Positions 5,285 through 26,541 of a stretch of DNA of 26,600 nucleotides are shown piece after piece. This stretch comes from a virus. Its lineage: Duplodnaviria; Heunggongvirae; Uroviricota; Caudoviricetes. Made by a program: the position numbers and the translations under genes. How positions within the stretch are numbered: the stretch's first letter is position 1; every line of letters begins with the position of its first letter. A model generated the notes under the pieces. That model saw only the letters and a program-made list of their open reading frames with translations. It was not told the DNA's origin and made no database searches. The stretch is from positions 1-26,600 of IMG/VR virus record IMGVR_UViG_2671180740_000004; one strand, 5' to 3'.

Positions 5285-5308
5285 CCTGTATCCGGTAACC
5301 GTTTACTA

Positions 5309-5331
5309 CCCGCTGTGATGGCGGGTTTTTT
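5309..5331 (+). terminator. rho-independent terminator of lom
   Basis: CCCGC (5309-5313), loop TGTGATG, GCGGG (5321-5325), then T6 (5326-5331). Confidence 0.8.
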
Positions 5332-5713: not shown

Positions 5714-6115
5714 ATGGCACCCGTTTCAGGTGAGAGAATGAACGATAAAATTCTCCGGTATATGCAGCGTGTTGTGAGAAATTCCCGCAACCCTGAATTT
5801 ATGAATGAAGTTAAAGACGCCTGCCTTAAAAAGCAGGCGTTTTGTTTTGAGGCACCTGATGGCTTTCTGGTGCTGCGTTCTGTGCTCAGTGCTGATGGTA
5901 TCCCTTATGTTCTGGTGTTGCTGGGCGTGTGTACGGGGAGTAACAGCGTTGAGCGTTATCTGCCGGAGGTGAAGACATTAACCCGTCTGGCTGGCGGACG
6001 TTGGGCTGAATTTCATACGGCAAGGCGGGGATTTATCCGGCTGGGAAAACGTCTGGGCTTTGAGCGAATGCCGGATGATGAGGATGGCTTCATGGTGTTC
6101 AGGATAGCGGTCTGA
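5714..6115 (+). CDS. hypothetical protein (133 aa; 125 aa if ATG 5738 is used), possibly GNAT-like
   Basis: Clean ORF ending 50 nt before a strong terminator. The C-terminal pattern FHTARRGFIRLGKRLGFERMPDDEDGFMVF loosely resembles the tail of acetyltransferase folds. The functional assignment is weak. Confidence 0.55.
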   Translation: MAPVSGERMNDKILRYMQRVVRNSRNPEFMNEVKDACLKKQAFCFEAPDGFLVLRSVLSADGIPYVLVLLGVCTGSNSVERYLPEVKTLTRLAGGRWAEFHTARRGFIRLGKRLGFERMPDDEDGFMVFRIAV

Positions 6116-6166
6116 CTGCCACAGTATTCATTATCGTGTGTAAACCAATTGCAATTCACATTCTGA

Positions 6167-6188
6167 CCCTGCCCCGGCAGGGTTTTTT
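6167..6188 (+). terminator. rho-independent terminator
   Basis: CCCTGC (6167-6172) / GCAGGG (6177-6182) followed by T6 (6183-6188). Confidence 0.75.
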
Positions 6189-6208
6189 GTTATCCAGGGG
6201 GGGCCATT

Positions 6209-6865
6209 ATGGGTGGAAGTAAAGGCGGTGGTGATACCAAAGTAAAACCAACAGCAGCGCAAATAGCACAGGAAGAAGTGGCCTGGAAAGGGTGGCAGGA
6301 TTACAAAAATATCCTCCGCCCGGCTGAAGATAACTTCATGGAAAAGGTCGATGACCTTAACAGTGAGCAGCAGTACGACAATATCGCTGGCACAACAAAT
6401 CTGGGTTATCAGAAACAGTTTGGTGAAGCGCGAAGGGAGCTGGCGGGTAATCTTGCTCAGTCCGGTGTTGACCCGTCCAGTGGTCGCTTTAACGCGGTAA
6501 TGAATGCGAACCAGAGTGATCAGGTAACCGGGCAGATTGACACAACCACACGGGGGCAGGTATCGCAGGCAGATAAGTATGTTGCCGGGCTACAGGATGT
6601 TGCAGCTCTCGGTTCAGGTCAGAAGGCGGATGCGTTACAGAGTTTTAACTCGCTGGCAGACAGCAGTCTGGCAAAAGCTAAATCGGACGCACAGGCTGCG
6701 TTTACGAAACAGCAGGGGCGAGCCTCTCTTGTTGGCGCTGGTTTGGGTGCGGTAGGTGCATATGCGATGCATAAGGCTGGTGGTAGCGGAGGAAGTGGCG
6801 GTGCTAAAACACCTGGCACCGGCGCTAATGCCATTCAGCATCAGGCTCAGAACTGGAGACTGTGA
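6209..6865 (+). CDS. hypothetical Gly/Ala/Gln-rich protein (218 aa), putative internal virion protein
   Basis: ATG 6209 lies behind a G7 run (6197-6203) that serves as the SD. The composition is low-complexity, with a hydrophobic GAGLGAVGAYA segment and a GGSGGSGG tract. It is the first gene of a tightly packed cassette. Confidence 0.55.
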   Translation: MGGSKGGGDTKVKPTAAQIAQEEVAWKGWQDYKNILRPAEDNFMEKVDDLNSEQQYDNIAGTTNLGYQKQFGEARRELAGNLAQSGVDPSSGRFNAVMNANQSDQVTGQIDTTTRGQVSQADKYVAGLQDVAALGSGQKADALQSFNSLADSSLAKAKSDAQAAFTKQQGRASLVGAGLGAVGAYAMHKAGGSGGSGGAKTPGTGANAIQHQAQNWRL

Positions 6866-6867
6866 TT

Positions 6868-7314
6868 ATGGAGTACGGTAAATACGAAACACTTGCAAGA
6901 TACGGTTATACCGGAGCAGCCCGCCCTCAGGGGGACTGGCAGGCATCCGCAGCGCTGACCCGCCAGCAATACGACGACTGGCGCACCAGATATTTACCCC
7001 GTGTAGCAAGGCTGGCTGACCTTGGCGAGAACAACAGCCTGATGAATGCACAGCTTGCCCGGGTGGGCGGCCTTGCCACTTCCAGTCTCCGTACAGCGCA
7101 GATGGCGCAGGATAACCAGATGGCGAGATACGGGGTAAGCCGCCCGGATAATCCCGACAGTAATACGCTGGGGTTACGTAATGCCCTGGCAATTGCTGGT
7201 GCGAAAAATGGTATCCGTGAAGCCGAACAGGATCGCCAGATGAACATACTGACGGGGGCTTCTGCACCTGCAAGACAACAACTGAGTGTTGGCGGTCAAA
7301 TGATGACAGCGTAA
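6868..7314 (+). CDS. hypothetical protein (148 aa), putative internal virion protein
   Basis: GGAGA (6855-6859) lies 8 nt before ATG 6868; the track's GTG 6862 is only 2 nt from the SD. The gene overlaps the upstream stop. Confidence 0.55.
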   Translation: MEYGKYETLARYGYTGAARPQGDWQASAALTRQQYDDWRTRYLPRVARLADLGENNSLMNAQLARVGGLATSSLRTAQMAQDNQMARYGVSRPDNPDSNTLGLRNALAIAGAKNGIREAEQDRQMNILTGASAPARQQLSVGGQMMTA

Positions 7315-7324
7315 GGGGGAAGAT

Positions 7325-7576
7325 ATGGGGTACGGCTTACTGGATATTGCGAATCAGTCACGGCGTGAGGCATTACAGGGAATAAGTGACGCAGACCGAC
7401 GACGTGAAGAAATTGAGGCTGCGAACAAACAGATGGCGGCGCAACAGAAAGCGCAGAACAAGCAGAATATCGGTACGGGCATTGGTACGGGGGCGGCTAT
7501 TGGCGCATCCGTTGGTGGTCCTGTTGGTGCTGTTGCTGGTGCAGTAATTGGCGGCATTGCTGGTTCTTTGTTTTAA
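7325..7576 (+). CDS. small glycine-zipper membrane protein (83 aa)
   Basis: SD AGGGGGA. The C-terminal half GTGIGTGAAIGASVGGPVGAVAGAVIGGIAGSLF is a GxxxG-type glycine-zipper TM segment. Confidence 0.6.
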   Translation: MGYGLLDIANQSRREALQGISDADRRREEIEAANKQMAAQQKAQNKQNIGTGIGTGAAIGASVGGPVGAVAGAVIGGIAGSLF

Positions 7577-7586
7577 GGAGTGGTGA

Positions 7587-8852
7587 ATGAGCGGATTTGC
7601 ACAGGGGTTACTTGCCGGATTCAGCACCGTTGACCAGGCAATGACCCGTCGTAAGGAGCTTGGTCTGCGTGAAGCACAGCTTGCCCGGCAACAGAAAAAT
7701 AACGAGCGCGATTTTGAATTTGCGCAGTCTCAGTTTGAGCACCGGAAAGAGAATGATCAGCGTACATATGATCTTAATGTCAGGAATGCTGACCGTGAAT
7801 ATGCGCTGAAAGAGAGGGAACACAAAGCAGCGCAGAATTATCGAAATGCGTCACTGGGTATGGAGCAGCAGCGACTCCAGTTGCAGAAATACAACCAGCG
7901 ACGGCTTGAGTATAACGATATGCTGGCGCGCGATCAGCCTGTGATGGCTGCGCTTGGAAAGGCTGTGGATGCTGGTGATCGGGATGCGGCAATGCGTCTT
8001 TACGGGCAGTTGTCAGAGGGTAATCCGCTGAGGCTGATGGCGAATGATGGCTATGCAGCGAAAGCGGGGCAGGCCGTGAACAACCTGCAGAAAATCTTTG
8101 ATGATAAGCCGGACAGGGCGATTGCTTCGCTGAATACCCCGGAAAATCTCGATGTGCTTTCCGGCGTGTTTGCCCCGGAACTACAACAGCGTATTGGCAT
8201 GCCTGATTCAACCGGGGAAAAGACAATAAAAGAGGCCAGGATTGGCAGTATCGTACCGGCGCAGCAGGAAGGGTACGTACTTATTGGTCTTGATCTCACA
8301 TACAGCGATGGCTCCACCGCGCATAAACCTGTAACAGAATACGGCAGTGCACATCCTGATGATCAAACCGTGCTGGCGATACCCGTTGATAAGGCTGTCG
8401 CTCTTGTCAGGGATCGCAGTAAATTCGCGGAAATTTCGAAAAATTACGGTTATTTCATGCCGAAGCAGCAGGGACTTTCTCTGAAAGAGCTTCAGAAGGG
8501 GGCCAGCAACGTAGCGGCGGAGGCGATCAAGAATGGCGGTAATGCTCAGGCTGCGGTGGATGAATATTATGCTGCGACTGGTTCACAACCGCATCAACAG
8601 AAAATTCAGCAACAAAAACTTCAGCAACAGGTTATCAACTGGGCGGGAGATGATCCTGATAAGCTGTCATTTGCCAGAAATGTAGCGGCCCGTCAGCCTG
8701 AAATGCTGGAACCTCAGAATCAGAAATTGCTGGAGAACGGGTATGCGAATTTTCTCCGTATTCAAAAGGCCAGGGGGGAACAGGCCAGAGATGAAAGTGC
8801 TTCATCTGCATCTCAGTTTATCCGTGGACTGAAACAGAATTACGCCCAGTAA
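7587..8852 (+). CDS. coiled-coil protein (421 aa), putative internal virion protein
   Basis: AAGGAG at 7575-7580 precedes ATG 7587. The sequence has long Q/R/E-rich heptad-like stretches. No catalytic motif was recognised. Confidence 0.55.
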   Translation: MSGFAQGLLAGFSTVDQAMTRRKELGLREAQLARQQKNNERDFEFAQSQFEHRKENDQRTYDLNVRNADREYALKEREHKAAQNYRNASLGMEQQRLQLQKYNQRRLEYNDMLARDQPVMAALGKAVDAGDRDAAMRLYGQLSEGNPLRLMANDGYAAKAGQAVNNLQKIFDDKPDRAIASLNTPENLDVLSGVFAPELQQRIGMPDSTGEKTIKEARIGSIVPAQQEGYVLIGLDLTYSDGSTAHKPVTEYGSAHPDDQTVLAIPVDKAVALVRDRSKFAEISKNYGYFMPKQQGLSLKELQKGASNVAAEAIKNGGNAQAAVDEYYAATGSQPHQQKIQQQKLQQQVINWAGDDPDKLSFARNVAARQPEMLEPQNQKLLENGYANFLRIQKARGEQARDESASSASQFIRGLKQNYAQ

Positions 8853-8885
8853 TTCACGATATTCCATTAATACCATTTCCTGATG

Positions 8886-8910
8886 CCCGGCCATTGTGCC
8901 GGGTTTTTTT
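8886..8910 (+). terminator. rho-independent terminator between the 421-aa gene and the giant gene
   Basis: CCCGGC (8886-8891), loop CATTGT, GCCGGG (8898-8903), then T7 (8904-8910). Confidence 0.75.
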
Positions 8911-8921
8911 ATGGAGTCTGT

Positions 8922-11900
8922 ATGGCCTATTCAGAGGAACAGCGTCCTGAGGCGCAACTCGGTAACCAGAATCGTAACAGCCTGAACATTCAGCAACCCG
9001 GCGAAACTGACAGCTATGAAGCATTTTTCTCTGATCCGAATCGCTGGAAGGATAACAGTACGTCGTTCAGCCTGGGCGATGTATTGCCAACAATGGGTAA
9101 AGGTTTCGCCCAGTCCGTCCGGGGAACAGGGGAAATGGCCCGTGGACTCGGTGATGCGATGATTCAGAGCCCGGTAAAAACAGGGGTGCGTATTTTAAAT
9201 GAGTTCAGCCGTATGGGGCTGCCGGGTGTCGCAACTGTGCAGGATATTTTTGCCGGTGGCAGCAGGGGGGCTGATGAGGTCATCGATACCCTGCCTGATG
9301 GCAAAAACGCGGTTACTGATACTGTCGGTAAAGGTCTGAAGGCAACCGGTAAGGCTGTCAGTGATGGTGCTAAAGCCTCGGATGAATGGCTGACCGATAA
9401 TATGTCGCCGGGTGCTGTGCGTGCGCTGAATACGCCAATGAGTGAAGGCTATGATGATCCCGCAGTCTGGCTGACGAAGGGGATGAATTTTGTCGGTGCC
9501 GTTGCGGCAGATGTGTTTGCTGGCGGTGTGGCTAAAAAGGTGGGTGATGTCACACTGCGAAAAATGCTGACCGCCGGGCTGGAGAAAAAATACATCGCGG
9601 CAGGGATGCAGCCGGAAAGAGCCACGGCACTGGCAGCAGACGCTGTCGATAAAAAAATGCCGGATTTATTCCGGGCGGGCCTGATCACCCATTCCACAGT
9701 AAGTGCACAGGGGCAGAGTGCAATGGCGGCAGCAGATGCTGTTCTTAATGCGGATTACTCTGAGCTGGCGCAGTCACCGAAATTTCAGCAGACGTTTTTG
9801 TCCATTGACGCCGACCCGCAGCACGCACAGCTTACTGATCGCCAGAAAATGGACCTGGCAAAAGAGCGTGTGGCTGATGAGGTGCGTGCGCAACTGGCAA
9901 CCGATCCTCAGTTGCTGGCTGTGAATGCCATGGCGGCAAAACTGGGCGATGCTCAGTTGCTTAATCTGGCGATGCGGGGCACGGCGAATACCGTTAAAAG
10001 CGGCATGATCAGAAACGCCACTGAACAGGGGGCGATTAATGCGGCGCAGGGCGGCTATTCACGCTATCAGGAAAACATGGCACTGCGTGATACCGCCGGA
10101 ATGGATGTGTCGCCGTGGGAGGGCGTGGCTGACGCAACGATCGAAGGTGCAGCCCTTGGTGCTGCGATGGGGGCACCATTCGGTGCGGTTGCCGGATATC
10201 GTGGCAGACGTCAGGCGGCAGATGAAGCCGCCATGCGTGAGGCTGAAGTCGTACAGCAGGACGACGCAGCCCCGCAACCAGAATCTGTTGATCCGGTGGC
10301 GCAGCATCGTGAATCCATGCAGGGGATGAATCGCGAGCAGCTTCTGGAGCAGTATGCTGATGCGGATATGGCGACAGAGGGTGACGCATCCGCAACTCAT
10401 CGCCGGGAAGCCGCCAGCCAGCTGTTGAATGAACTGGACGAACAGGCGAAGCGACAGGCTGTGATGAATGAGCTGAAGGCGAAGCCGCGTTCTGAACTGC
10501 TTGAGGAATACCGCAGACTCAGCCAGAAAGAGGGGCGCACCGAGACTGAAGAACAACAGTTTCAGGCAATACGAGAAGTCATTCGCCCACAACAGGAAGT
10601 GACGCCGGAAGCACAGTCACAGTCTGAAAATGCGGAGGATGGTAACGGGAGCATTTACCCGACGGTGCGGTTCCGGGACCCGAATGAAGTCCGCATTGAA
10701 ATTAACGGGAATGGTGCGTCCAGACCAGCGGAACGCATTGAAAAGGTGCGCCCGGACAACCGTTATTTCACGGATGAGAAAAGCGCCATGGGGAGTGATG
10801 TTTTCCGTAATGCCGCCGCCACCGGCCTGAAACCGTCCGTAGTGAAGAAAGGCGAGAATCAGTATGCCGTTGAAATGGATAATCCTGCGTTCTCTGAAAA
10901 TGTGGCAACGGAAACCATTAACACCCTGGCTGACGGAGAGCGTATTGCTGATGCTGACCCGATGGAGCAGCCCGCGTTCATGCGTGACCCGCGATTCCGT
11001 GGTTTCACGGGGGATGATACGGAGGTACAGGCCCGCCTTGCCCGTGGCAACGCGCCGACGGCGGAGGAGCTTGTACGTTCACAGATGGCTGAAGGTGATG
11101 CCGGTCCGACAGCACAGGAGTTAACTGAGCGTCCGCGTCTGCCCGCCCCCGGCGATATTCATCCCGGACAGGGATATCCGTTACCGGGAGAGGTGGCGCG
11201 TACGCCGGATGAGAATCAGGCCGGACGTGGTGGTCGTTTTACCACAACCGGTGAGGTTAAGGGCCAGAGTTTCCAGAAAGGACGCGGCCCGGCACAGGAA
11301 AACGCCGCTGGTCGCCAGGGGGAAATACTGGAGGGCGAAACTGTTCGTCGTGGTCTGCCGTCACCGGATGAGCAGAGTGTTACCGCCCCGGTACGTGAAG
11401 GTCTACCGGCTCCTGACATTACACACAATGTCCGCATGCCTCAGCCTGAACAGCTTCCCCGAACTGTTCGCAACTCATTACCTGAGCTGGCACAGCAGGC
11501 AGAAGTACGCCGACAGACAGGAGAAGTTCGCGACATCCCGCATGCTGAAACAACAGCACATGAGTCTGAAACAGTTGCTGCTACTGATGGTGAAGGTGCC
11601 GCACGCGGAGGTGTTGCCGGGGGCAAAAAAATTGAAGACTTTGGCGAGGAAATTAAAGGGGCAGCCAAACACCGTTATGCACAGCTTGCTGAAACACTGG
11701 GTAAAACGCTGGAAGACAGGGATTATGCCACGCAGCCGCTGAGCAAACTGTTCCCGAAACCGGACTACGCAAAACTGGCGAACGAAGGTGCCGATGCTGA
11801 CACTCTGGCAATGATAGCTCTGTATCGTAGCGATATTCCGGCGAAGACGAAACACAATACGGCAGGCTGGGGGGAGAGCGTAAAAAAAGTACGACACAGT

Positions 11901-14900
11901 GTATCGGAAATGCTGAACGGAACGGTCAGCGCGAAACGCCTCGCAGAATGGATGGAAGGCAGAATGCCCTCCCGTTACGCGGATACCTGGCAACTGTTAC
12001 GCACTCTGCCACCCTCACAGATGGACAGGGCTTCTGCTTATCGGGTGGTATCGGGTGTGTATCAGGCGGCAGGAGGGAAGCGTTACGATCCGCCACAGAA
12101 ACTTTATTCACTGCGCAATAAGGACAATAAGGGTAGTAACCTCTTTTTCTCGGAAAGCAGGGATGAATTACTGACAAAGGCGAAAGTCTGGTTTGCAGAG
12201 CAGGAGGAAAAATCACAGGCGAAAGGTGATGAAAAAACAGCGCCTTCACCGGATGACAAAATCCGCTTTGACGTTTACCGGAATACCCGCAGTGGCGATA
12301 TTTTTATCGCTTACGGTAAAAACAAAATGCGGGTGAGAGGTGGCTTTAAGTCAGCCAGTGATGCGCGTAAGTACATTGATTCACATCGTGATGAGCTTGT
12401 TCGTCATGTGAAGGATATGCGGGAGATTTCGCGTGAGGAGCAGCGTAACGCCACCAACCGCGACCGTACCGGACCAGAACGCCGTAAAGGGGATGTTTCA
12501 CCGGAGCAGTTCAGTGATGCGTTTGGTTTCCGTGGTGTGCAGTTTGGTAACTACGTGGAAGGTCCGCGTCGTCAGGCTGATTTGAACCGGGCTTATGACT
12601 CGCTGCATGACCTTGCGGAAGTACTGAATGTACCGACAAAAGCGCTTTCCCTGAACGGTCGTCTTGGCCTGGCATTTGGTGCCCGTGGTAAGGGTAAGGC
12701 GGCGGCACACTATGAGTCAGGTGAGGTGGCAATCAACCTGACAAAAGGTAACGGACCGGGGGCGCTGGCGCACGAATGGTTCCATTCACTGGATAATTAT
12801 TTTGGTCGTTATGACGTTTCCACTGACGGGAAGATTACGTCAGGTGGCGACTTTATGACGGAAGCACAGCGTGCCAGGCGCGTATTTAAAGACGGCAGGT
12901 ATGTTGATGCTGAATATCCGGTACGTCAGGAGGTTTACGACGCTTTTAAAGGTGTGATTCAGGCCATTAAAAACAGTGACATGCCGCGTCGTTCAGCGCT
13001 TCTCGATGAGGTGCGCTCAAAACCGTACTGGTCAACGGATGTTGAAATGGCGGCACGTGCCTTTGAGCGTTATGTTCAGGATAAGGCGCGTATGGCTGGC
13101 GTGGAGAATGATTATCTGGTCAATATCCGTAAGGCACCTGAGCACAACACAGATAACACCTGGGCTTATCCGACGAATGCGGAACTGGATGGCGGTATTC
13201 GTGAGGCATTCGATCACCTGTTCCGCACCCTGAAAACCCGTGAGACGGACAAGGGCGTTGCGTTTTATTCCCGTAAGGGCGTTACCCGCACACCTGAAGG
13301 TAATCTCATTTCGGATGTTAACCGTAGTGCGGAAGCCAAAGGCAGCCCGGTCCCGCAGGTTGAAGCGGTTGCCCGTGGCGTGATGAGCGGCATTAAGGAC
13401 AGTGACCTGAAGGTCCGTGTGGTGAAGTCACAGAAAGAGGCTGAAGCGCTGGCGGGTGAATCGTTCGACGGTTACGGCAGGGTGCACGCATTCTATCGTC
13501 CGGATAAACGAGAAATTGTCCTGGTGGCGGATAACATCCCTGACGGGCGGACCGTACGCGAGAAGTTGCGTCACGAGATTATCCACCATGCCATGGAGCA
13601 TGTTGTCACGCCAGCGGAATATCAGACGATTATCAAAACCGTGCTGAAAACCCGCGACAGTGATAACGCCACCATCCGTGAAGCATGGCGTAAGGTTGAT
13701 GCGTCCTATGGTAAGGAATCACCGGAAGTACAGGCGGGTGAATTTCTGGCACATATGGCGGAGAAACAGCCGAATAAATTCGTGGCGGCATGGGAGCGTG
13801 TTGTTGCCCTGGTCAAAGGGGTACTGCGTCGTACGGGGTTACTGAAACCGACGGAACTGAACGATATCAGACTTGTTCGCGAGACCATCCGTACGTTAGG
13901 CCAGCGTGTGCGGGAAGGTTACACGCCGCGTGAGGATGGCGCGGGCGCATCGTCTCAGTACTCCCGTAGTGGTAAACCTGATCCGTTCAAAGTGCCGGAA
14001 GGTGAGGGTGAACGTTATCGCGATGACCTTGCCAGAATGATGAAATCTCTGCGTACCACAGATTTAACGGTAAACATCGGGCGTACGCCGCCGGTATTGC
14101 GTCACCTTGGTGCACCGGATTTGCCGCTGGTTATTTCCCGCGATACTGTGCGGAAGGCCACCAATGGTGTGAAACATGTGGTGCCGATGGATGTTATCGA
14201 GAGACTACCGGAACTGATGCACGATCCGGATGCAATTTACCGTTCCGCGACAGAAAGAAATGCGGTTGTGATGCTGCTTGATGCCGTGGATAAAAATGGT
14301 GATCCGGTAGTGTCTGCGGTGCATATGAAGGCAACCCAAAAACTTCTGGAAGTTAACCGTATTGCTTCTGTTTACGGAACGGAAAACGGGAAAAAACTGA
14401 AGAGTATGGAAATGGCTGGCTTAACATTATACAGGAGAGAAAAACTAAACCCTGATGGTTCTCTGTACAGAGGGCTCCAATTGCCCAAAGATGAGCACTC
14501 CCGTCAGGGTTCTGCGGATAAAATACTCTATCCTGAAGATATTCGCAAGGGGCCGTATTACTCCCGTACCAGCAGTCTGACACCGGAAGAGACAATTGCA
14601 TCGCGTTTTGTGCGCCAGATGCAGGATAAATTCCAGGTGCTGAAAGCTGTTCAGGAGAATATCCGTAAAACTGGTGGAAAAATAGACGACAGTAACAACG
14701 CTTATATGGCGGAAGAACTCTTCCACGGGAAGGCGGAAAACGACCTGAACGTGATGAAGGAGCGCTACGTTCAGCCACTGGCTAAATTACTGGCGGACTA
14801 CAAAATTGCGCAGGCCGATCTGGATGAGTACCTCTACGCCCGTCATGCACCGGAACGTAACGCGCATATCGCGAAAATCAACCCGAAAATGCCGGACGGC

Positions 14901-17303
14901 GGTTCGGGGATGAGCAACGCGGAAGCGGCGGAAATCATGCAGCGTGTGCGTAACAGCGGCAAACAGGCACAGTATGACCGTCTGGCAGGGATTATTGACG
15001 ATATGCTGGCCCGTCGCCGTGAGATTATCCGTGAGGCAGGACTGGAAGAGAGCGGCGTGGTGGATGCCTGGCAGAAAGCCTACCGTTACTACGTCCCCCT
15101 GAAAGGGCAGGATGTTGACGGTGTGGTGTCACTGCCACGTACAGGCAAGGGATTCACCATCGGCGGGCGTGAAAGTAAGCAGGCCATGGGGCGTGCATCC
15201 CGCGCACAGTCTCCTTCCACTCAGGCGATACAGGATTTGAGTGAATCGCTGATCCGCAATCGCAAAAATGAAGTGGGTAACGCCTTCCTGAAACTGGTAC
15301 AGGATAATCCCGACAAGGATTACTGGCAGGTATTCACTGATGACAGACCGGATACCATGCGTGTGATTGCAGAGCGCAAGGACCAGGAAACTGGTGAAAC
15401 CATTCGCGAAGTTGTCGAGCGTCCGGTGGCGATGGCAATGATGGCAGACCGGTACTTCACCACCAAAAAGAACGGCAAAACGTACTACATCAAACTCCAT
15501 GATCCGCGCCTGATGCGTGCGATGAAGAATATGGGACCGGAAACCAGTAACGCAGTAATCCGTACGCTGGGGAAAGTTAACCGCTTCCTGGCAACGGTGA
15601 ACACGTCGTATAACCCGGAATTCCTGGTCAGTAACTTCATCCGTGACGTGCAGACAGCGGTGATGAATCTGAAGGCGGAGCAGGGAAGGAGCGACGGCAA
15701 ACTGAAAGGGCTGGATAACTTATCCGCACTGGCTGTGGTGAAAGACAGCCGTTCTGCTATGTCAGCCGTATACGCCAGTCTGCGTGGCAAAAACCTCACG
15801 GGCAAAGGTGCGCAGTGGCAGAAGGTGTGGAAAGAGTTTGTTGAGGACGGAGGTAAAACCGGCTGGTTTAACATGGGTGACCTTGAAGGCCAGCAGAAGG
15901 AAATGGATCGCCTTGTATCGCTGGCGAAGGGAGGATGGAAAGGCCAGAGTATCGGTGCATGGAATTCGTTCCTGAACCTGGTCGAGGATGCCAACGGTGC
16001 GGTTGAAAACGCACTGCGTCTGTCAGCTTATAAACACGCCCGTGATGCCGGTTTGTCACGCCAGCAGGCGGCGTCTCTTGCCAAAAACATGACGGTGAAC
16101 TTTAACCGTCGTGGTGAGCAGGGGGCGCTGATGAACTCGCTGTACATGTTCGCCAACGCCAGTATTCAGGGAACGGCAAATCTGGTGAGAACGCTCGGAC
16201 ATCTTAATGGTGAGGGACCTTTACTGGAGCGTCTTCGCTGGAAGAATCTGAATGTTCCGCAGAAAATCGCGCTTGCCGCTGTGGGAGCGGGTTATCTGCT
16301 TGGCTCGCTTAACCGCAGCGTGGCGGGTGAGGATGATGACGGGGTTAACTGGTATGACAAAGTACCGTCTCATGTGAAAGAGCGTAACCTCGTCATTATG
16401 AAATCGGTGTTCGGGGGCAAGGCCGGAGAGTACTGGAGTATTCCTCTGCCTTACGGGTACAACGTTTTCTTCCTGCTTGGTCACACAGCCGAAGGGGTGG
16501 CAGCGGGCGACCTGACCGCTTCACGTGCTGCCGGTAATGTTGTTGGTGGTGTGCTTGGGGCATTCAGTCCTGTGGGCAGTGAAACGTCGGAAACACTGTC
16601 CGGGGCATTGCTGAAAAATGCAGCGCCGACCATTCTGCGTCCGTTTGCGAACCTTGCCATGAATGAAAACTTCATGGGGGCGCAGATTTACCAGGAGAAC
16701 ATGCCGTTTGGTACACCAAAACCTGACAGCCAGCTGGGAAGACGTTCAACGCCAGAAGCGTACAAGGCGTTTGCATCCTGGCTGAATGCGTTCTCAGGTG
16801 GCAGCCAGTACCGTCCCGGCGCGGTGGATATCACACCGGAATCGCTGAAATTCTGGATTGACTATATCTCCGGAGGGACAGGGCGCTTCATTTCCAAAAC
16901 CACGGATGCGGCGGTGAAATCGCTGAATGGTATTGATATACCGGAACAGCAGGTGCCCTTCCTGGGGAAAATTTCGGGGGAGGTGATGCCGTATGCAGAC
17001 CAGCAGAAGATGTACGACCGGATGACAGAGATTGCGCAGTATCACGCAGAGCTGAAGAGTCTGACCGGTGCAGAAAGAACGGCGTTCATTGACGAGAACA
17101 ACGGAAAATTGTCGATGAACGGGCTTATGCAGGATACCCGGAAGAGACTGAAGGATTTGCGTAAACAGCGTGATGCCATTTATGCCGACAGTTCTCTCAG
17201 TCTGGCGCAGCAGGCGGCGATAGTGAAATCGGTAGAGCGGGATATGAAGGTTGCCGTGGATCGCTTTAACCGCGAGTACAACAAAAAAGTGGGAGTGGAT
17301 TAA
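8922..17303 (+). CDS. giant polyvalent protein (2,793 aa) with two zincin-type HExxH motifs; probable virion-packaged/injected protein
   Basis: GGAG (8913-8916) lies 5 nt before the in-frame ATG 8922; the track start at 8883 lies inside the terminator hairpin. HEWFH is at 12771-12785, within FGFRGVQFGNY...GALAHEWFHSLDNY...ARAFERYV, which I recognise as the LPD1-type domain of polyvalent proteins. HEIIHH is at 12572+1000 = 13572-13589. The protein also has Gly/Ala hydrophobic segments near 9480-9545 and 10135-10200, a Pro/Glu-rich linker at about 10200-11650, hydrophobic helices at about 16250-16580, and a C-terminal coiled coil. Confidence 0.8.
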   Translation: MAYSEEQRPEAQLGNQNRNSLNIQQPGETDSYEAFFSDPNRWKDNSTSFSLGDVLPTMGKGFAQSVRGTGEMARGLGDAMIQSPVKTGVRILNEFSRMGLPGVATVQDIFAGGSRGADEVIDTLPDGKNAVTDTVGKGLKATGKAVSDGAKASDEWLTDNMSPGAVRALNTPMSEGYDDPAVWLTKGMNFVGAVAADVFAGGVAKKVGDVTLRKMLTAGLEKKYIAAGMQPERATALAADAVDKKMPDLFRAGLITHSTVSAQGQSAMAAADAVLNADYSELAQSPKFQQTFLSIDADPQHAQLTDRQKMDLAKERVADEVRAQLATDPQLLAVNAMAAKLGDAQLLNLAMRGTANTVKSGMIRNATEQGAINAAQGGYSRYQENMALRDTAGMDVSPWEGVADATIEGAALGAAMGAPFGAVAGYRGRRQAADEAAMREAEVVQQDDAAPQPESVDPVAQHRESMQGMNREQLLEQYADADMATEGDASATHRREAASQLLNELDEQAKRQAVMNELKAKPRSELLEEYRRLSQKEGRTETEEQQFQAIREVIRPQQEVTPEAQSQSENAEDGNGSIYPTVRFRDPNEVRIEINGNGASRPAERIEKVRPDNRYFTDEKSAMGSDVFRNAAATGLKPSVVKKGENQYAVEMDNPAFSENVATETINTLADGERIADADPMEQPAFMRDPRFRGFTGDDTEVQARLARGNAPTAEELVRSQMAEGDAGPTAQELTERPRLPAPGDIHPGQGYPLPGEVARTPDENQAGRGGRFTTTGEVKGQSFQKGRGPAQENAAGRQGEILEGETVRRGLPSPDEQSVTAPVREGLPAPDITHNVRMPQPEQLPRTVRNSLPELAQQAEVRRQTGEVRDIPHAETTAHESETVAATDGEGAARGGVAGGKKIEDFGEEIKGAAKHRYAQLAETLGKTLEDRDYATQPLSKLFPKPDYAKLANEGADADTLAMIALYRSDIPAKTKHNTAGWGESVKKVRHSVSEMLNGTVSAKRLAEWMEGRMPSRYADTWQLLRTLPPSQMDRASAYRVVSGVYQAAGGKRYDPPQKLYSLRNKDNKGSNLFFSESRDELLTKAKVWFAEQEEKSQAKGDEKTAPSPDDKIRFDVYRNTRSGDIFIAYGKNKMRVRGGFKSASDARKYIDSHRDELVRHVKDMREISREEQRNATNRDRTGPERRKGDVSPEQFSDAFGFRGVQFGNYVEGPRRQADLNRAYDSLHDLAEVLNVPTKALSLNGRLGLAFGARGKGKAAAHYESGEVAINLTKGNGPGALAHEWFHSLDNYFGRYDVSTDGKITSGGDFMTEAQRARRVFKDGRYVDAEYPVRQEVYDAFKGVIQAIKNSDMPRRSALLDEVRSKPYWSTDVEMAARAFERYVQDKARMAGVENDYLVNIRKAPEHNTDNTWAYPTNAELDGGIREAFDHLFRTLKTRETDKGVAFYSRKGVTRTPEGNLISDVNRSAEAKGSPVPQVEAVARGVMSGIKDSDLKVRVVKSQKEAEALAGESFDGYGRVHAFYRPDKREIVLVADNIPDGRTVREKLRHEIIHHAMEHVVTPAEYQTIIKTVLKTRDSDNATIREAWRKVDASYGKESPEVQAGEFLAHMAEKQPNKFVAAWERVVALVKGVLRRTGLLKPTELNDIRLVRETIRTLGQRVREGYTPREDGAGASSQYSRSGKPDPFKVPEGEGERYRDDLARMMKSLRTTDLTVNIGRTPPVLRHLGAPDLPLVISRDTVRKATNGVKHVVPMDVIERLPELMHDPDAIYRSATERNAVVMLLDAVDKNGDPVVSAVHMKATQKLLEVNRIASVYGTENGKKLKSMEMAGLTLYRREKLNPDGSLYRGLQLPKDEHSRQGSADKILYPEDIRKGPYYSRTSSLTPEETIASRFVRQMQDKFQVLKAVQENIRKTGGKIDDSNNAYMAEELFHGKAENDLNVMKERYVQPLAKLLADYKIAQADLDEYLYARHAPERNAHIAKINPKMPDGGSGMSNAEAAEIMQRVRNSGKQAQYDRLAGIIDDMLARRREIIREAGLEESGVVDAWQKAYRYYVPLKGQDVDGVVSLPRTGKGFTIGGRESKQAMGRASRAQSPSTQAIQDLSESLIRNRKNEVGNAFLKLVQDNPDKDYWQVFTDDRPDTMRVIAERKDQETGETIREVVERPVAMAMMADRYFTTKKNGKTYYIKLHDPRLMRAMKNMGPETSNAVIRTLGKVNRFLATVNTSYNPEFLVSNFIRDVQTAVMNLKAEQGRSDGKLKGLDNLSALAVVKDSRSAMSAVYASLRGKNLTGKGAQWQKVWKEFVEDGGKTGWFNMGDLEGQQKEMDRLVSLAKGGWKGQSIGAWNSFLNLVEDANGAVENALRLSAYKHARDAGLSRQQAASLAKNMTVNFNRRGEQGALMNSLYMFANASIQGTANLVRTLGHLNGEGPLLERLRWKNLNVPQKIALAAVGAGYLLGSLNRSVAGEDDDGVNWYDKVPSHVKERNLVIMKSVFGGKAGEYWSIPLPYGYNVFFLLGHTAEGVAAGDLTASRAAGNVVGGVLGAFSPVGSETSETLSGALLKNAAPTILRPFANLAMNENFMGAQIYQENMPFGTPKPDSQLGRRSTPEAYKAFASWLNAFSGGSQYRPGAVDITPESLKFWIDYISGGTGRFISKTTDAAVKSLNGIDIPEQQVPFLGKISGEVMPYADQQKMYDRMTEIAQYHAELKSLTGAERTAFIDENNGKLSMNGLMQDTRKRLKDLRKQRDAIYADSSLSLAQQAAIVKSVERDMKVAVDRFNREYNKKVGVD

Positions 17304-21246: not shown

Positions 21247-21421
21247 GATGACCTCCTTTGGCTTTTTTCGAGAAATGCCACCACAAAATGTGGTGCCGGG
21301 AGGCTCGAAACGGCCCAAAAGATACCGCGGACTTATTCCCCTTGCGGGTGTTGTATTCGTCGCCCTCCCGACATTGATCGGGGATGTGACCGCACACTGT
21401 GCTATCACTGAATAACAGGCA
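21247..21421 (-). promoter_or_regulatory. structured 5' leader of antA (module 1), candidate riboregulator
   Basis: RNA helices are CCCGA/UCGGG around AUCAAUG; CGGGAGG (from plus 21363-21370) / CCUCCCG (from plus 21296-21303); CCC-GCAA-GGG (21338-21348); and CACCACA/UGUGGUG (21279-21295). CCUCC is complementary to the SD GGAGG (21252-21256). Confidence 0.5.
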
Positions 21422-21783: not shown

Positions 21784-21937
21784 AATTATGACTCCTGACG
21801 TTTTAGTATTGACTGCCACCTTAGTGGGGTGGCGGGCTTCAACTACCGCGTCAGACGGCGGAGCGTATTTCCCGAAAGGGTATTGTATTAGGCTCTCTCG
21901 ACCCGCCATTGATATGGCGATACCTGTAAACAGGCAT
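21784..21937 (-). promoter_or_regulatory. structured 5' leader of antA' (module 2), same architecture as module 1
   Basis: RNA helices are CGCCAU/AUGGCG (21919-21904); GGCGGG (21907-21902) / CCCGCC (21836-21831); CCC-UUUC-GGG (21880-21871); and GCCACC/GGUGGC (21833-21815). CUCC..CUGACG (21863-21849) is complementary to the RBS CGUCAGGAG (21800-21792). Confidence 0.5.
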
Positions 21938-22144: not shown

Positions 22145-22218
22145 GTTTTTCAATGTTGGGACGTGTGAGCGCAGAAATGACGGGCTATCTAATTGATTTT
22201 AAACGATACGTAACCAAC

Positions 22219-22302
22219 TTTAAAATCTTTGCACGCCAGTTCGCAGGTTTTACAGCCAGTACAGCGGCTGGAATCGATAAAAAATCCATATTGTGTGGTC
22301 AT
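22219..22302 (-). pseudogene. ynfG: 5' fragment (28 codons) of the ynfG/dmsB-type 4Fe-4S subunit gene
   Basis: AGGAG precedes ATG 22302, 10 nt after the ynfF stop. The fragment encodes MTTQYGFFIDSSRCTGCKTCELACKDFK and then runs into unrelated DNA (VGYVSFKIN*, stop at 22189-22191). Confidence 0.75.
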
Positions 22303-22312
22303 GGGCTACTCC

Positions 22313-24354
22313 TTAAACCTTTTCGATCTGGACAAGATTGCTGTGCGACGGGTTTCCCTTTGCCAGCGGTGAAGGGCGGTGAGAGGTCAGAATATTGATA
22401 CTGCCGCCGTGATCGACCCGGTCACCAAACATATCCGCTTTAAGCCACGCACCTTGCCCGATGGCGGTAACGCCAGGCAGAATACGCGGAGTCACTTTTG
22501 CGGCAATCAGCATTTCTCCATTATTGTTAAATACCCGCACGGTATCGCCATGACGGATACCGCGTGCCTGAGCATCAATGGGGTTGATCCACACCTCTTG
22601 TGGGCAGGCCTGCTGTAACACATCAATATTGCCGTAGCTGGAGTGGGTACGCGCTTTGGTTTGGCGACTTCACTCAGCATCCAGTAGATGGGTTTGCGTT
22701 CAAATTTTGCTGAGGTTGCGGGTTGGGCGAGGATCACATAGCCCATATTCCCTGCAGATTCATGAGAGATAAGGTCTTCTTGCTCTGTTGGCATCAGGTC
22801 AGGCAACAGGATATCGCAATACTTAGCCGAGGCCGTCATGAAGTGGTCAATGCCAACAATCATCTCGCACTTGCTGTCATCCTGAAGCACCTCATGGGTG
22901 TGATTGATGTCGCCATGTTGATTGATCAATGTGTTACTGGCGTAGCACCATAAAAACTTGATGGGGACATCCAGTTTTTCTTTTCCACGAACACCATCAC
23001 GGGTCGCGGTCATTTTCGTACCATGGTCGATGGCATCTGTCCATGTAAAAACGGAAATCTGCGTTTTAACAGGATTCTCGAGCATCGGGAACCATTCTAC
23101 CCCCAGATCCCAGCTACCTTCGCGTACACCTGAGTTGCCGCCGTTTATGCCGACGTTACCGGTAAGAACGGAAAGCATGGCAATAGCGCGGGACGTTTGT
23201 TCGCCGTTGGAGTGTCGTTGTGGCCCCCAACCCTGACAAATATAAGCAGGTTTTGCTGAACCGATCTCTCGTGCCAACTGGATAATTTTTTCTGCCGGGA
23301 TGCTGGTGATTTTTGCTGCCCATTCCGGCGTTTTAGCTATGCCGTCAGGCCCTTCGCCCAGAATATAGGCTTTATAATGCGCGTTACGTGGTGCGTTGGC
23401 GGGCAGCGTTTTTTCATCGTAACCAACACAATATTTGTCGAGAAATGGCTGATCGACCATGTTTTCAGTAATCAGTACCCAGGCAATCGCACAGGCCAGT
23501 GCGCCATCGGTGCCAGGGCGAATGGGCAGCCATTCATCTTCACGCCCGGCAGCTGTGTCGTTATAGCGTGGATCGATGACGATCATGCGTGCGTTTGAAC
23601 GTTCGCGGGCTTGCTCGACGTAGTAAGTGACACCACCGCCGCTCATCCGCGTTTCTGCCGGGTTATTTCCGAACATAACGACCAGTTTCGTATTGGCGAT
23701 ATCATCCGGGCTGTTGCCATCATTGGCACCGAACATATAACTCATTGCGGCACTGATCTGTGCGGTACTGTAGCTGCCATAGCGACTGAGAAAACCCCCG
23801 CAAGAGTTCATCAGACGGTACGGGACGTTCGAGTTGGTGATATTTCCGCCATCTACGCCTGTTCCGTACAGGACATGTACAGCCTCATTGCCGTAATCTT
23901 TCAGGATCCGCCGAAGATTATCACTGATGGTATCCAGGGCTTCGTCCCAACTTATCCGTTCAAATTTACCTTCACCGCGCTCGCCGACGCGCTTCATGGG
24001 ATATTTCAACCTGTCAGGATGATTCATCCGTCGGCGGATAGAGCGCCCGCGTAAACATGCCCGAACCTGATGATTACCGTAAACGTCGTCACCTGTCGTA
24101 TCAGACTCCACCCAGTACACGGTGTCATCTTTCACATGCAAACGTAGCAGACAGCGGCTCCCGCAGTTAACGGTGCAGGAACTCCAGACCGTTTTCTCTT
24201 CTACCGGAGCCTCTGCCGCCCGGACCATTTGGGAAAATGGCAGAGTGAAAGCACTGCTTGCCAGCGCGAGACTGCCAAGTGCGGAGGTTTTCATCAGACT
24301 TCTATGGCTGATTTCAGCCTTCATGAGCGCCTCTGTGGTATGGATTTTCATCAT
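22313..24354 (-). pseudogene. ynfF: ynfF (Tat-dependent molybdoenzyme of the DmsA family) with an internal frameshifting deletion
   Basis: The N-terminal part (24354 to about 22660) and the C-terminal part (22621-22313) lie in different frames. The junction SEVAK|(P)KRV... is at about 22658-22660. The ynfE paralog in this same window has 130 codons (390 nt, 24754-25143) between the equivalent points. Confidence 0.8.
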
Positions 24355-24411
24355 TACTCACTTATTGCTTTTCAAACAAAATGTCATGCCAGAATTTATG
24401 GTTGTAGTGGG

Positions 24412-25437
24412 TTATATTTTTTCGATCTCGACCAGATTAGTGTGCTGCGGGTTTCCCTTCGCCAGTGGTGAAGGGCGCAGAGTGGTTAGCGTATTCACAC
24501 ATCCGCCATGGTCGATTTTATCGCCAGACATATTGGGCTCGTGCCAGGCTCCCTGGCCCATAGCGCTAACTCCAGGGAGAATGCGTGGTGTTACTTTGGC
24601 TGGTAGCCGAACTTCGCCACGATGGTTAAACACCCGCACCATATCGCCGTTGGCAATCCCACGTTTCTGTGCATCTATAGGGTTGATCCACACCTCCTGA
24701 CGGCAGGCTGCCTTCAGGACATCAATGTTGCCGTAGGTCGAGTGAGTACGGGATTTGTAATGGAAACCAAACAGTTGCAGTGGGAAGGTTCTACGTTCAG
24801 GGGAGTCCCAGCCTTCAAAGGTTGAGGCATAAACTGGCAGTGGGCTTATCACTTCATCTTTTTCCAGTTCCCAGGTACGGGCAATTTCCGCCAGCTTGCT
24901 GGAATAAATTTCAATCTTACCGGAAGGCGTTTTAAGTGGATTTGCCTCGGGGTCGTCACGAAATGCTTTGTAGGCGACAAAATGGCCATTGGGATCTTTA
25001 CGCTTATAGATACCCATTTTTTTCAGTTCGTCGTAAGACGGTAACGCCGGATCTTTGGCAAGCATTTTGGCGTACAGATGTTGTAACCATTGTTCCTGCG
25101 TGCGACCTTCTGTGAACTTTTGATAGACGTCAGGTCCAAGACGTTTCGCGACTTCACTCAGGATCCAGTAAATCGGTTTACGTTCGAATTTTTCGCTGGT
25201 GACTGGCTGGAGGAAAATGAGATATCCCATGTTACCGGCGTAGTCGTTAGGAATAATATCTTCCTGCTCAACGGTCATCAGGTCTTCCAGCAGAATGTCG
25301 GCATATTTTGCCGATGAGGTCATAAAGTTTTCGATGACCACAATCATTTCGCATTTCGATTCGTCCTGCAGAATTTCATGCGTTTTGTTGATGTCAGAAT
25401 GCTGATTAACGAGGGTATTTCCCGCGTAGTTCCAGAT
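24412..25437 (-). pseudogene. ynfE: 3' portion (about 342 codons) of ynfE; the 5' half is replaced by foreign DNA
   Basis: DmsA-family similarity starts at ...IWNYAGNTLVNQHSD (codon at 25437) and runs to the stop at 24412. The 47 upstream codons of the track ORF are unrelated. Confidence 0.75.
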
Positions 25438-25503
25438 GGACTCCATTGCCAGACGGATGGATGGACTTGAAGTAGTTGACTCAATGCTACTTAAGGTCCT
25501 GAT

Positions 25504-26541
25504 ATGACTGACATTAATCATGATAACACTGTATATCCATCCAGTTCTTTCTCTGGGTCTCCCTATCGGTATCAGCAAGTCTACACCTCAAGCCCTGACA
25601 CAAGGCTGACACAAATCAATCTACTCAGCGTAGCTAAGCCTCAGTTAGTCCGCAGAGCCAATGGTCGATATACTATCCGCTTCAGACTCAAGGGACAGAC
25701 CACACCGTTTCTTTCAGTATCGACCCGCAGCACAGACAGGAGAGTAGCCACAATGCGTCAGAGAGAGCTTGCAGCCACCGCTAAGGCCTTCATGTTGGAT
25801 AGGCCTGAAGTCTCACTACAGGAGCTTACAGAGCATCTCCGGTCTATGGCTGAGCAGTTCCTGACAGACGCTAGTGACGATTACTGGAATGGACTTGAGG
25901 TCGCTACTCTGGTCGACGAGAAGTCCAACCTGAAGGAGCTAGCCGCTACGCAAGCCTTGAGTCTGGACCAGCAGAAGGGCATAAGGTTAGCGCTGGAAGT
26001 CCTGACCGCAGCACAGCAGAGAGTCGACACTGGTGATACCTCTGGTCTGATTAAGCTGATTGATGATAATAACCTTACTGATGACTCAACTATAGGCGAC
26101 TCTACGTCAATTCTGAATAATGAGCAGGGGGATAGACCGGCAGTTTTCACACAGGAGCGCCAGTCATCTGTAGTTTTTTCAAGCCTAGTGTCCTCGCTGC
26201 TGGCTGAGAAGGTCCAGACCCTGAAGACATCCAGCTACAAGGACCTCTCGTCCTCACTCAATACTGTCTCCCGGTTCCTGCCTGAAGACATGGACCTGAT
26301 GTCCCGCTCTGGGTGGCTGGCTGTCAGGGACTCTATGCTGGCTTCTGAGGTGAGACCATCGACAATCAACAAGCTGCTGACCAAAGCGAAGATGTGTCTC
26401 GATTATGGCCTGATGAATGGGCAACTTGAGGGCCGCAACCCTATTGAACGGATGAAGCTGACCAAGGATATCGACTCCAAGCGCAGAGCGTTCACAGACG
26501 AGGAGCTGGAGAGACTTCTGGTCCGTGTTGAGTCTGAGTGA
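25504..26541 (+). pseudogene. tyrosine recombinase/integrase, N-terminal and core-binding parts only, truncated by an IS
   Basis: LVRRANGRYTIRFRLKG...SVSTRSTDRRVA resembles the N-terminal motif of one integrase class. ...TINKLLTKAKMCLDYGLMNGQLEGRNPIERMKL...KRRAFTDEELERLL marks the core-binding to catalytic transition. No R-H-R-Y catalytic region is present, because the stop TGA (26539-26541) is the first three bases of the IS end. Confidence 0.55.

Follow-up and report, generated by a model that had tools for sequence, protein, structure and literature searches.

Domain architecture of a giant polyvalent protein of Shiga-toxin phages: two predicted metallopeptidase domains and a proposed conserved carrier with exchangeable cargo

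In the most widespread Shiga-toxin (Stx) phages the largest gene, accounting for about 14% of the genome, is one that is present in complete form in the 26,600-nucleotide (nt) stretch of phage DNA analysed here (positions 1 to 26,600 of the IMG/VR record IMGVR_UViG_2671180740_000004, hereafter the window). It occupies positions 8922..17303 of the plus strand and encodes a protein of 2,793 amino acids (aa; ~308 kDa), which is 100% identical to gp71 of the Shigella flexneri phage POCJ13 (Sepvirinae; NC_025434, 49404-57785). We propose that this polyvalent protein is probably packaged in the phage head and that a conserved carrier is combined in it with exchangeable cargo. The carrier consists of an N-domain (aa 155-524), a metallopeptidase domain of the HExxxH family (aa 1458-1688) and a helical C-terminal module (C-module, aa 1880-2793). 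In the Stx phages the cargo consists of LPD5 and a CLCA_X-type zincin (together aa 1051-1440) and of a domain with a predicted RNase-like BECR fold (aa 1750-1837).

The finding as first formulated, in a preliminary description made from the window's sequence, is already known from the description of the protein family in 2017 (Iyer et al. 2017, PMC5512222), from the LPD names used in RefSeq and from a 2026 preprint on the Stx phage phi24B (bioRxiv 10.64898/2026.04.10.717836). That description considered the role of such giant reading frames not to be established, which holds with respect to experiments, but the same hypothesis is in print for phi24B and the family had been outlined in 2017. 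What is added here is where the two peptidase domains lie and of which type they are, the recognition of MuF_C as RNase-like, the carrier made of N-domain, HExxxH peptidase and C-module with its exchangeable cargo, a five-gene cassette shared with Vibrio phages, and a C-module that lacks any solved counterpart.

Conserved carrier and exchangeable cargo

The division into carrier and cargo is seen when the protein is compared with its relatives. With the giant protein of Vibrio phage D121 (3,066 aa), in which LPD5, the CLCA_X zincin and MuF_C are missing, it shares only the HExxxH peptidase, the C-module and the region of aa 155-524. The N-domain (9384..10493, plus strand) is homologous to aa 120-489 of the D121 protein (E 1.4e-33) and has a weak match to PHROG 37568. 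All three parts of the carrier recur in Vibrio podophages, and the C-module, alone of these parts, recurs in Burkholderia, Ralstonia and Bacillus podophages behind other cargo domains.

The C-module (14559..17300, plus strand; ~910 aa) includes Pfam LPD38 at 16347-16964. Its AlphaFold model (pLDDT 87, pTM 0.83) is mostly helical with one small beta domain, and the part earlier called a terminal coiled coil is modelled as four helices arranged in helical hairpins. Many phage polyvalent proteins have the whole fold in their C-terminal parts (TM 0.6-0.89). Homologues cover 97-100% of the module at 33-58% identity and differ in their N-terminal domains; the cargo found ahead of it in relatives includes ART, methylase, LPD3, InPase, lytic transglycosylase and RelA/SpoT domains. 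The module is also found alone, and one such stand-alone copy, in an Amphritea prophage remnant, was followed as a lead and dropped, its context being uninformative. By tblastn the C-module is detected in 355 phage records, with identities of 41% in the Vibrio D-series phages, 32% in Bacillus phage Dartukuta, and 27% over 83-85% of the module in the 'DarB-like' giants of BcepIL02, BcepMigl and Ralstonia GP4. The HExxxH peptidase and the C-module frequently occur together: 57 of 149 representatives carrying the peptidase end in the C-module, which begins at a median of 122 aa past the peptidase, and a further 47 of the 149 have tails of 700-1,400 aa that hhalign aligns with the C-module core (Prob 95.5%, E 1.5e-8).

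In two metagenomic phages, L003 (3386-14251) and L004 (1-14473), the equivalent content is divided between two adjacent giant open reading frames (ORFs) of 2,181 and 1,416 aa and of >3,100 and 1,490 aa, respectively. The split in L003 lies ~220 residues past the HExxxH peptidase match (aa 1714-1963 of 2,181), and the second giant ORF is followed by two small ORFs and then an integrase; the L004 sequence stops before any integrase position.

Two predicted metallopeptidase domains

The preliminary description drew attention to two HExxH motifs. From the composition of the protein 0.04 such motifs are expected and two are present (P ~7e-4); both lie where they were reported and both are conserved, but the second belongs to a family whose signature is HExxxH.

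The first metallopeptidase domain (aa 1182-1440; 12465..13241, plus strand) is of the CLCA_X type and carries HEWFHSLD at 12771-12794, in which HEWFH corresponds to aa 1284-1288 (nt 12771-12785). The NCBIfam profile CLCA_X aligns with aa 1182-1437 nearly from end to end (profile positions 3-245 of 250, E 8e-44); the score of 150 bits is below the curated subfamily cut-off of 260 for NF041907, and the domain is thus homologous to the family, not a member of the subfamily by the rule of NCBI. Among 65 homologues with 30-50% identity, H1263, E1265, N1272, T1274, H1284, E1285, W1286, H1288, D1291, D1362, Y1369, E1375 and R1379 are invariant. The domain possesses the features of a zincin, namely the HExxH motif with the conserved D1291 and E1375, and a helix, a three-stranded sheet, the HExxH helix and the Glu helix in succession. 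Lenart et al. (2013, PMC3650047) introduced CLCA_X as a family of predicted zincins from phages and plasmids, and the likeness extends to the near full-length profile match, the Asp following HExxH, the prevalence of phages and plasmids and the often very long proteins; in contrast, the Asp is located here three residues past the second His (HExxHxxD), whereas HExxHxxxD is given in that paper.

In PMC5512222 a widespread phage-type peptidase is described in which strand 2 ends in a His and HEXXH is followed, at a distance of three residues, by an Asp. The residues of the first domain fit this type, and therefore Pfam LPD1 (aa 1361-1440, nt 13002-13241), which covers the last 80 residues of the domain, represents its C-terminal third, including the helix with the conserved Glu. 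The earlier assignment of HEWFH to an LPD1-type zincin is right with respect to the zincin fold and the conserved domain, but the Pfam LPD1 match is found 73 residues downstream of the motif. Judged from the alignments, LPD1 alone is not the zincin but a part of a predicted metallopeptidase domain of the CLCA_X type.

The second metallopeptidase domain (aa 1458-1688; 13293..13985, plus strand) carries HEIIHH at 13572-13589 (aa 1551-1556), followed by the conserved E1607 and E1614. An exhaustive HMMER search with aa 1441-1740 as query gave a family of 406 cluster representatives, mostly proteins of 2,000-6,000 aa, with a few stand-alone members of 210-270 aa. In the 141 aligned members the motif is LRHE-x3-H-[HY]-G-L in 133 and HE-x2-H in 6; E1552, the second His of the motif (the H1555 column) and E1607 are conserved in 100%, H1551 in 99%, E1614 in 92% and Y1596 in >90% of them. 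H1551 and H1556 keep the spacing of the HExxxH family, and the Glu helix is present downstream. The alignment shows that the Stx/Salmonella branch lost one residue, giving HEIIHH, and that H1555 thereby produces the look of an HExxH motif. A HEXXXH variant of the peptidase is described in PMC5512222. In an AlphaFold model of aa 1040-1900 (mean pLDDT 77.8) both peptidase regions contain a helix, three strands, the motif helix and the Glu helix in this order, and in the model the predicted order of secondary structure in the second domain fits a zincin.

Other domains of the protein

The domain that Pfam identifies as MuF_C (aa 1750-1837; 14169..14432, plus strand) scores 63 bits against a gathering score of 27.6 (E 3.1e-17). 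MuF_C is assigned in PMC5512222 to the phage BECR (PBECR) clade of RNases, whose predicted fold is that of metal-independent RNases. All aligned homologues retain H1752 and S1816, which is the active-type configuration described in the same source, and the BECR matches in the fold comparison agree with MuF_C. The domain is thus predicted to be RNase-like, and since its fold is that of the BECR RNases and not of a peptidase, the 'Muf-C metallopeptidase domain' of the phi24B preprint is a mislabel. Together with E1285 and E1552 of the two peptidases, H1752 of this domain is pinpointed as a candidate catalytic residue.

LPD5 (aa 1051-1200; 12072..12521, plus strand; PF18799, E 5.6e-45) is described as 'potentially enzymatic' in PMC5512222 and is nearly always paired with a downstream zincin/LPD1 in homologues. 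Upstream of LPD5 an acidic, Pro-rich low-complexity linker (10494..12041, plus strand) separates the cargo from the N-domain. It contains, as first reported, two copies of R-x-GLP-[SA]-PD, which a motif search places at 11346-11369 (RRGLPSPD) and 11394-11417 (REGLPAPD). The Gly/Ala-rich hydrophobic segments noticed near the N-terminus were likewise recovered by hydropathy as two glycine-zipper-like segments of the N-domain, aa 190-208 and aa 402-425. At E<=10 Pfam gives no match in the first 1,039 aa of the protein.

In total, the Pfam domains above cut-off are LPD5, LPD1, MuF_C and LPD38 (aa 2476-2681), in agreement with the initial view of a phage polyvalent protein. The protein unites unrelated domains of effector type in one polypeptide (LPD5, CLCA_X zincin/LPD1, HExxxH peptidase, MuF_C/PBECR and LPD38), and within the late operon its gene comes last, behind those for the tail fibre and the internal virion protein. 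Several unrelated domains, a late-gene context and zincin-like peptidases as hubs are also the features of the polyvalent proteins of PMC5512222, which covers both flavours of peptidase seen here, PBECR/MuF-C, and LPD38 as a phage-only domain. The searched text of that paper does not mention 933W, and neither the ~910-aa C-terminal unit, nor its fixed pairing with the HExxxH peptidase, nor a linked five-gene cassette was found described in it. The protein matches PHROG 616 (function unknown) along its whole length. Sequence and profile searches of the PDB, with the whole protein and two alignments as queries, gave no match.

Presence of the protein in virions

The phi24B preprint reports mass spectrometry of purified virions and a map obtained with cryo-electron microscopy (cryo-EM). 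Its gp47 is a 95%-identical orthologue of the giant protein (92-97% identity at the DNA level, equal position, the same Pfam domains), and with 10,962 spectra it is second only to the capsid protein (bioRxiv 10.64898/2026.04.10.717836). The presence of the protein in virions, which had been supposed from the sequence, is thereby confirmed for an orthologue. No density is assigned to gp47 in the cryo-EM map, and the preprint proposes that it is an ejection protein (bioRxiv 10.64898/2026.04.10.717836). The two interpretations differ in one respect: the preprint puts the metallopeptidase in MuF-C, whereas here the two peptidase domains lie elsewhere and MuF-C is RNase-like. The gp47 peptides in the sampled peptide table of phi24B are spread over the N-terminal, the central and the C-terminal part. 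Length-normalised spectra from a batch sample, scaled to 12 portal subunits, give ~23 copies per virion; in the same calculation the hexameric nozzle comes out at 6 and the 18-copy fibre at 22, so that the estimate is accurate within a factor of ~2. JC1 gp69, a Bcep22-type giant of the C-module family, has also been found virion-associated by mass spectrometry. A 2025 proteomics paper on enterohaemorrhagic Escherichia coli (EHEC) phages does not mention the giant protein.

The giant gene is accompanied by five upstream genes (133, 218, ~150, 83 and 421 aa; 5714..8852, plus strand), all of which have colinear homologues directly upstream of the D121 giant gene (E 8e-7 to 2e-16). For the 218-aa protein there are matches to virion proteins in BcepIL02 and GP4, and the 567-aa protein encoded further upstream (548-2251) matches the internal virion protein of the same two phages. 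Orthologues of the cassette proteins are present in phi24B virions, gp48 with 1,634 spectra, gp51 with 523 and gp50 with 129 (bioRxiv 10.64898/2026.04.10.717836). The 83-aa protein (7325-7576, plus strand), annotated as 'bacteriocin', ends in a strongly hydrophobic glycine zipper; its phi24B orthologue gp49 was weakly detected and dismissed as a contaminant (bioRxiv 10.64898/2026.04.10.717836). Its place in the cassette that is colinear with D121 makes a genuine small protein of the virion, or of ejection, the more likely interpretation. The 421-aa protein (7587-8852, plus strand), directly upstream of the giant gene, has no Pfam match. For its phi24B orthologue gp48, which bears the label 'Transcription factor?', the spectra have their maximum where it is expected in the gel, and ~37 copies is a rough estimate for it; proteins of similar size (467-530 aa) and unknown function precede the giant gene in D121, BcepIL02 and GP4.

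Distribution, alleles and selection

All 186 Stx-phage records that match the giant gene do so at coverage of at least 80% and identity of 92-97%, and the gene is intact in them. Among complete E. coli genomes it is present in 427 of 5,426 (8%), nearly at full length in 423. Seven Stx alleles were compared; all are open (2,783-2,799 aa) and every region is under purifying selection, with ratios of nonsynonymous to synonymous substitution rates (dN/dS) of 0.06-0.21. The lowest values are those of two parts of the carrier, the C-module (0.06) and the HExxxH peptidase (0.07). Far greater divergence, with both dN and dS high and dS reaching ~1, is seen in the linker, LPD5 and the PBECR region, and of all regions the linker differs most among the alleles. 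A raw count of variable columns raised the idea of positive selection on LPD5 and PBECR, which was rejected because dN/dS is only ~0.2 and dS is raised as much as dN, an indication of mosaics of old, exchanged alleles.

Two natural in-frame deletion alleles were found in E. coli genomes. In P0127, aa 1-496 are joined to 1693-2793 and the second peptidase is lost, and in P0299, aa 1-379 are joined to 1383-2793 and the second peptidase is kept. The cargo is gone from both, with 379-496 aa of the N-terminus and 1,100-1,400 C-terminal residues retained.

Proposed mode of action and alternatives

What does this protein do in the phage life cycle? If the gene indeed encodes a carrier with cargo, its product would be synthesised late from a Q-antiterminated transcript, and ~10-40 copies would be packed in the T=9 head together with the five upstream gene products. 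At infection the protein would leave through the tail, before or with the DNA, and the carrier and the small glycine-zipper proteins could aid in bridging the envelope. One or both metallopeptidases may then cut the polypeptide and set free the enzymatic cargo, whose targets in the cytoplasm would be RNA or proteins of the host or defence systems. The logic of self-processing by such peptidases is set out in PMC5512222, and the location of the HExxxH peptidase at the junction of cargo and carrier suggests that this peptidase releases the cargo.

Several points weigh against this proposal. First, no activity is assigned to LPD5. Second, the hydrophobic segments of the giant protein are too weak for transmembrane helices. 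The several hydrophobic helices previously noted at about 16250-16580 are weak, the C-module having a moderately hydrophobic Gly-rich segment at 16254-16322, and the Kyte-Doolittle maximum over 19 residues is 1.22, below the usual transmembrane threshold of 1.6. Third, PDB searches reveal no similarity of the C-module in sequence or fold to any solved structure, and the ejection proteins of T7, P22 and N4 are absent among the matches returned for the giant protein. Fourth, all regions of gp47 are represented by peptides from virions, and therefore the cargo is not removed before packaging. In addition, the gel-slice spectra of gp47 show no discrete products, 62% of them lying above the slice of the 80-kDa portal, with a long tail; a similar smear is seen for other phi24B proteins and the sampled peptide table is not resolved by slice, and for these reasons an attempt to read self-processing from the published gel slices was rejected. 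Finally, the alleles without aa 380-1382 or 497-1692 may stem from defective prophages or be a sign that the cargo is dispensable.

The known ejection systems of short-tailed phages offer a comparison. T7 gp14/15/16 and P22 gp7/16/20 are head-internal, co-encoded and needed to bridge the envelope. The giant protein differs from them in being about ten times larger and in lacking a lytic transglycosylase domain, and similarity to them in sequence or structure, or homology to an ejection protein of the T7/P22 type, was not detected. The virion RNA polymerase of N4 is also a giant (~3,500 aa) housed in the T=9 head of a podophage and expelled into the cell, and it contains a zincin-like peptidase domain (PMC5512222); unlike it, the giant protein has no RNA polymerase domain and no detectable similarity to it in sequence or fold. 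A wider proposal, which we put forward as a tentative one, is that the five small proteins and the carrier form a distinct DNA-delivery apparatus of podophages, unrelated to those of T7, P22 and N4, that doubles as a general injector: any enzyme joined by fusion to its upstream side, ahead of the HExxxH peptidase, would be brought into the cell and cut free, and the spare volume of a T=9 head with a ~60-kb genome would exist in order to hold ~10 MDa of protein.

It is rather unlikely that the giant protein is a dispensable anti-defence accessory injected in the manner of P1 Dar, with N- and C-terminal parts that serve only for targeting or for retention in the head while the DNA is delivered by other proteins. 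On the one hand, the Bcep22-like and GP4 relatives are virion-associated and annotated as 'DarB-like antirestriction', the cargo regions are mosaic among alleles, and the in-frame deletion variants retain the two terminal parts. On the other hand, the ~1,500 residues of the carrier are under the strongest constraint (dN/dS 0.06) and have been conserved, along with five small virion proteins, between Escherichia and Vibrio, which is more than a tag for packaging would call for, and ~20 estimated copies are many for an accessory enzyme; the size of the carrier, its constraint and the copy number thus weaken this explanation. Moreover, the giant protein contains no methyltransferase or helicase domain of P1 DarB according to Pfam, and a rescan at E<=10 of the N-terminal 1,039 aa and of aa 1200-1393, 1441-1750 and 1837-2476 revealed no domain of the P1 DarB type. 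The 'DarB-like' label of the giant is due to the C-module, the only part it has in common with PHROG 10089.

The relation to these relatives (Bcep22 gp75, JC1 gp69, BcepIL02 gp70 and the GP4 giant) lies in the homologous C-module (E 1e-51 to 1e-55 at the identity and coverage given above), in the position as last gene of the virion module and in related structural genes. They differ in size (3,224-4,667 aa) and cargo, no more than one cassette protein out of the five is recognisably common to their phages, and the HExxxH-peptidase profile detects nothing in these giants. In BcepIL02 and GP4, HEAFH and HEMFH motifs precede the C-module; they were considered as counterparts of the second peptidase domain and set aside, as the profile does not detect them.

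Still less probable is a purely structural ejection protein, as the phi24B preprint proposes, which would form a trans-periplasmic conduit and whose metallopeptidase would digest peptidoglycan so that the conduit can extend to the inner membrane. The abundance of the protein in virions, together with its absence from the cryo-EM map, and the glycine-zipper-like segments would suit such a conduit, and the lytic transglycosylase cargo of some members implies that the periplasm is where at least some of them act. However, the 'MuF-C' that the preprint takes for a peptidase has a BECR RNase-like fold, and an RNase-like cargo, as well as the ART, methylase and RelA/SpoT domains of relatives, makes sense only in the cytoplasm; the nature of the peptidase folds and the cytoplasmic type of the cargo weaken the proposal. 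A decaying or non-virion gene with functionless motifs, either a moron of lysogenic conversion or the remnant of a pseudogene, could be imagined from its location past lom and other morons and past a terminator-like hairpin and from the truncated and internally deleted copies in databases, but virion proteomics (an abundant orthologue) and purifying selection in every region effectively refute it, and the gene is intact in 7 of 7 alleles, in 186 phage records and in 423 genomes.

The carrier with exchangeable cargo, which we consider the probable explanation, has two implications. First, the mapped residues and the clear boundary between carrier and cargo make it testable whether the protein is essential delivery machinery, an injected effector or both. 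Second, if the explanation is true, a generic injector carrier could explain how unrelated podophages deliver diverse enzymes, and it could be exploited for the delivery of proteins into bacteria.

Start codon, late transcription and neighbouring features

The uninterrupted frame of 2,793 codons that was originally claimed is confirmed, one open frame spanning 8883-17303. Annotations differ with respect to the start codon, and some records use ATG 8883 (2,806 aa), which falls within a GC-rich terminator-like hairpin with a T-run (8885..8904, plus strand; found by consensus scan and in the sequence) directly 5' of the giant gene. ATG 8922 is likely the start codon, because GGAG is present 7 nt upstream of it and because ATG 8883 lies in the hairpin; RefSeq also uses ATG 8922 for POCJ13 gp71, under the label 'LPD5 domain-containing protein'. 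The phi24B proteomics used a six-frame ORF length of 2,811 aa (bioRxiv 10.64898/2026.04.10.717836), and the peptide numbers of the preprint are shifted by 17-18 residues relative to ATG 8922.

In Stx phages, in phages of Vibrio, Burkholderia and Ralstonia and in metagenomic phages, the late operon ends with the giant gene. Three terminator-like hairpins are seen in the distal late operon of the window, all on the plus strand, at 5308-5326 (past lom), 6165-6184 (past the 133-aa gene) and 8885-8904, and no promoter-like site was found on the plus strand between 5200 and 18000. The expression of the giant gene therefore probably relies on antiterminated late transcription. In lambdoid phages, Q-modified polymerase reads through terminators during late transcription, and by analogy it would also read through the hairpin at 8885-8904.

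Two minor features were observed further downstream. Rfam sRNA-Xcc1 matches are present at 21287-21372 and 21823-21907 on the minus strand (74.5 and 53 bits), each inside the 5' part of one of two ORFs for antirepressors of the AntA type. The junction between prophage and host lies at ~22200-25578, and the POCJ13 record stops near window position 22217. Past the junction, on the minus strand, molybdopterin oxidoreductase genes are split into an ORF of 615 aa without the C-terminal dinucleotide-binding domain and an ORF of 388 aa that comprises the C-terminal part only, which suggests disrupted host genes and possibly the site of integration.

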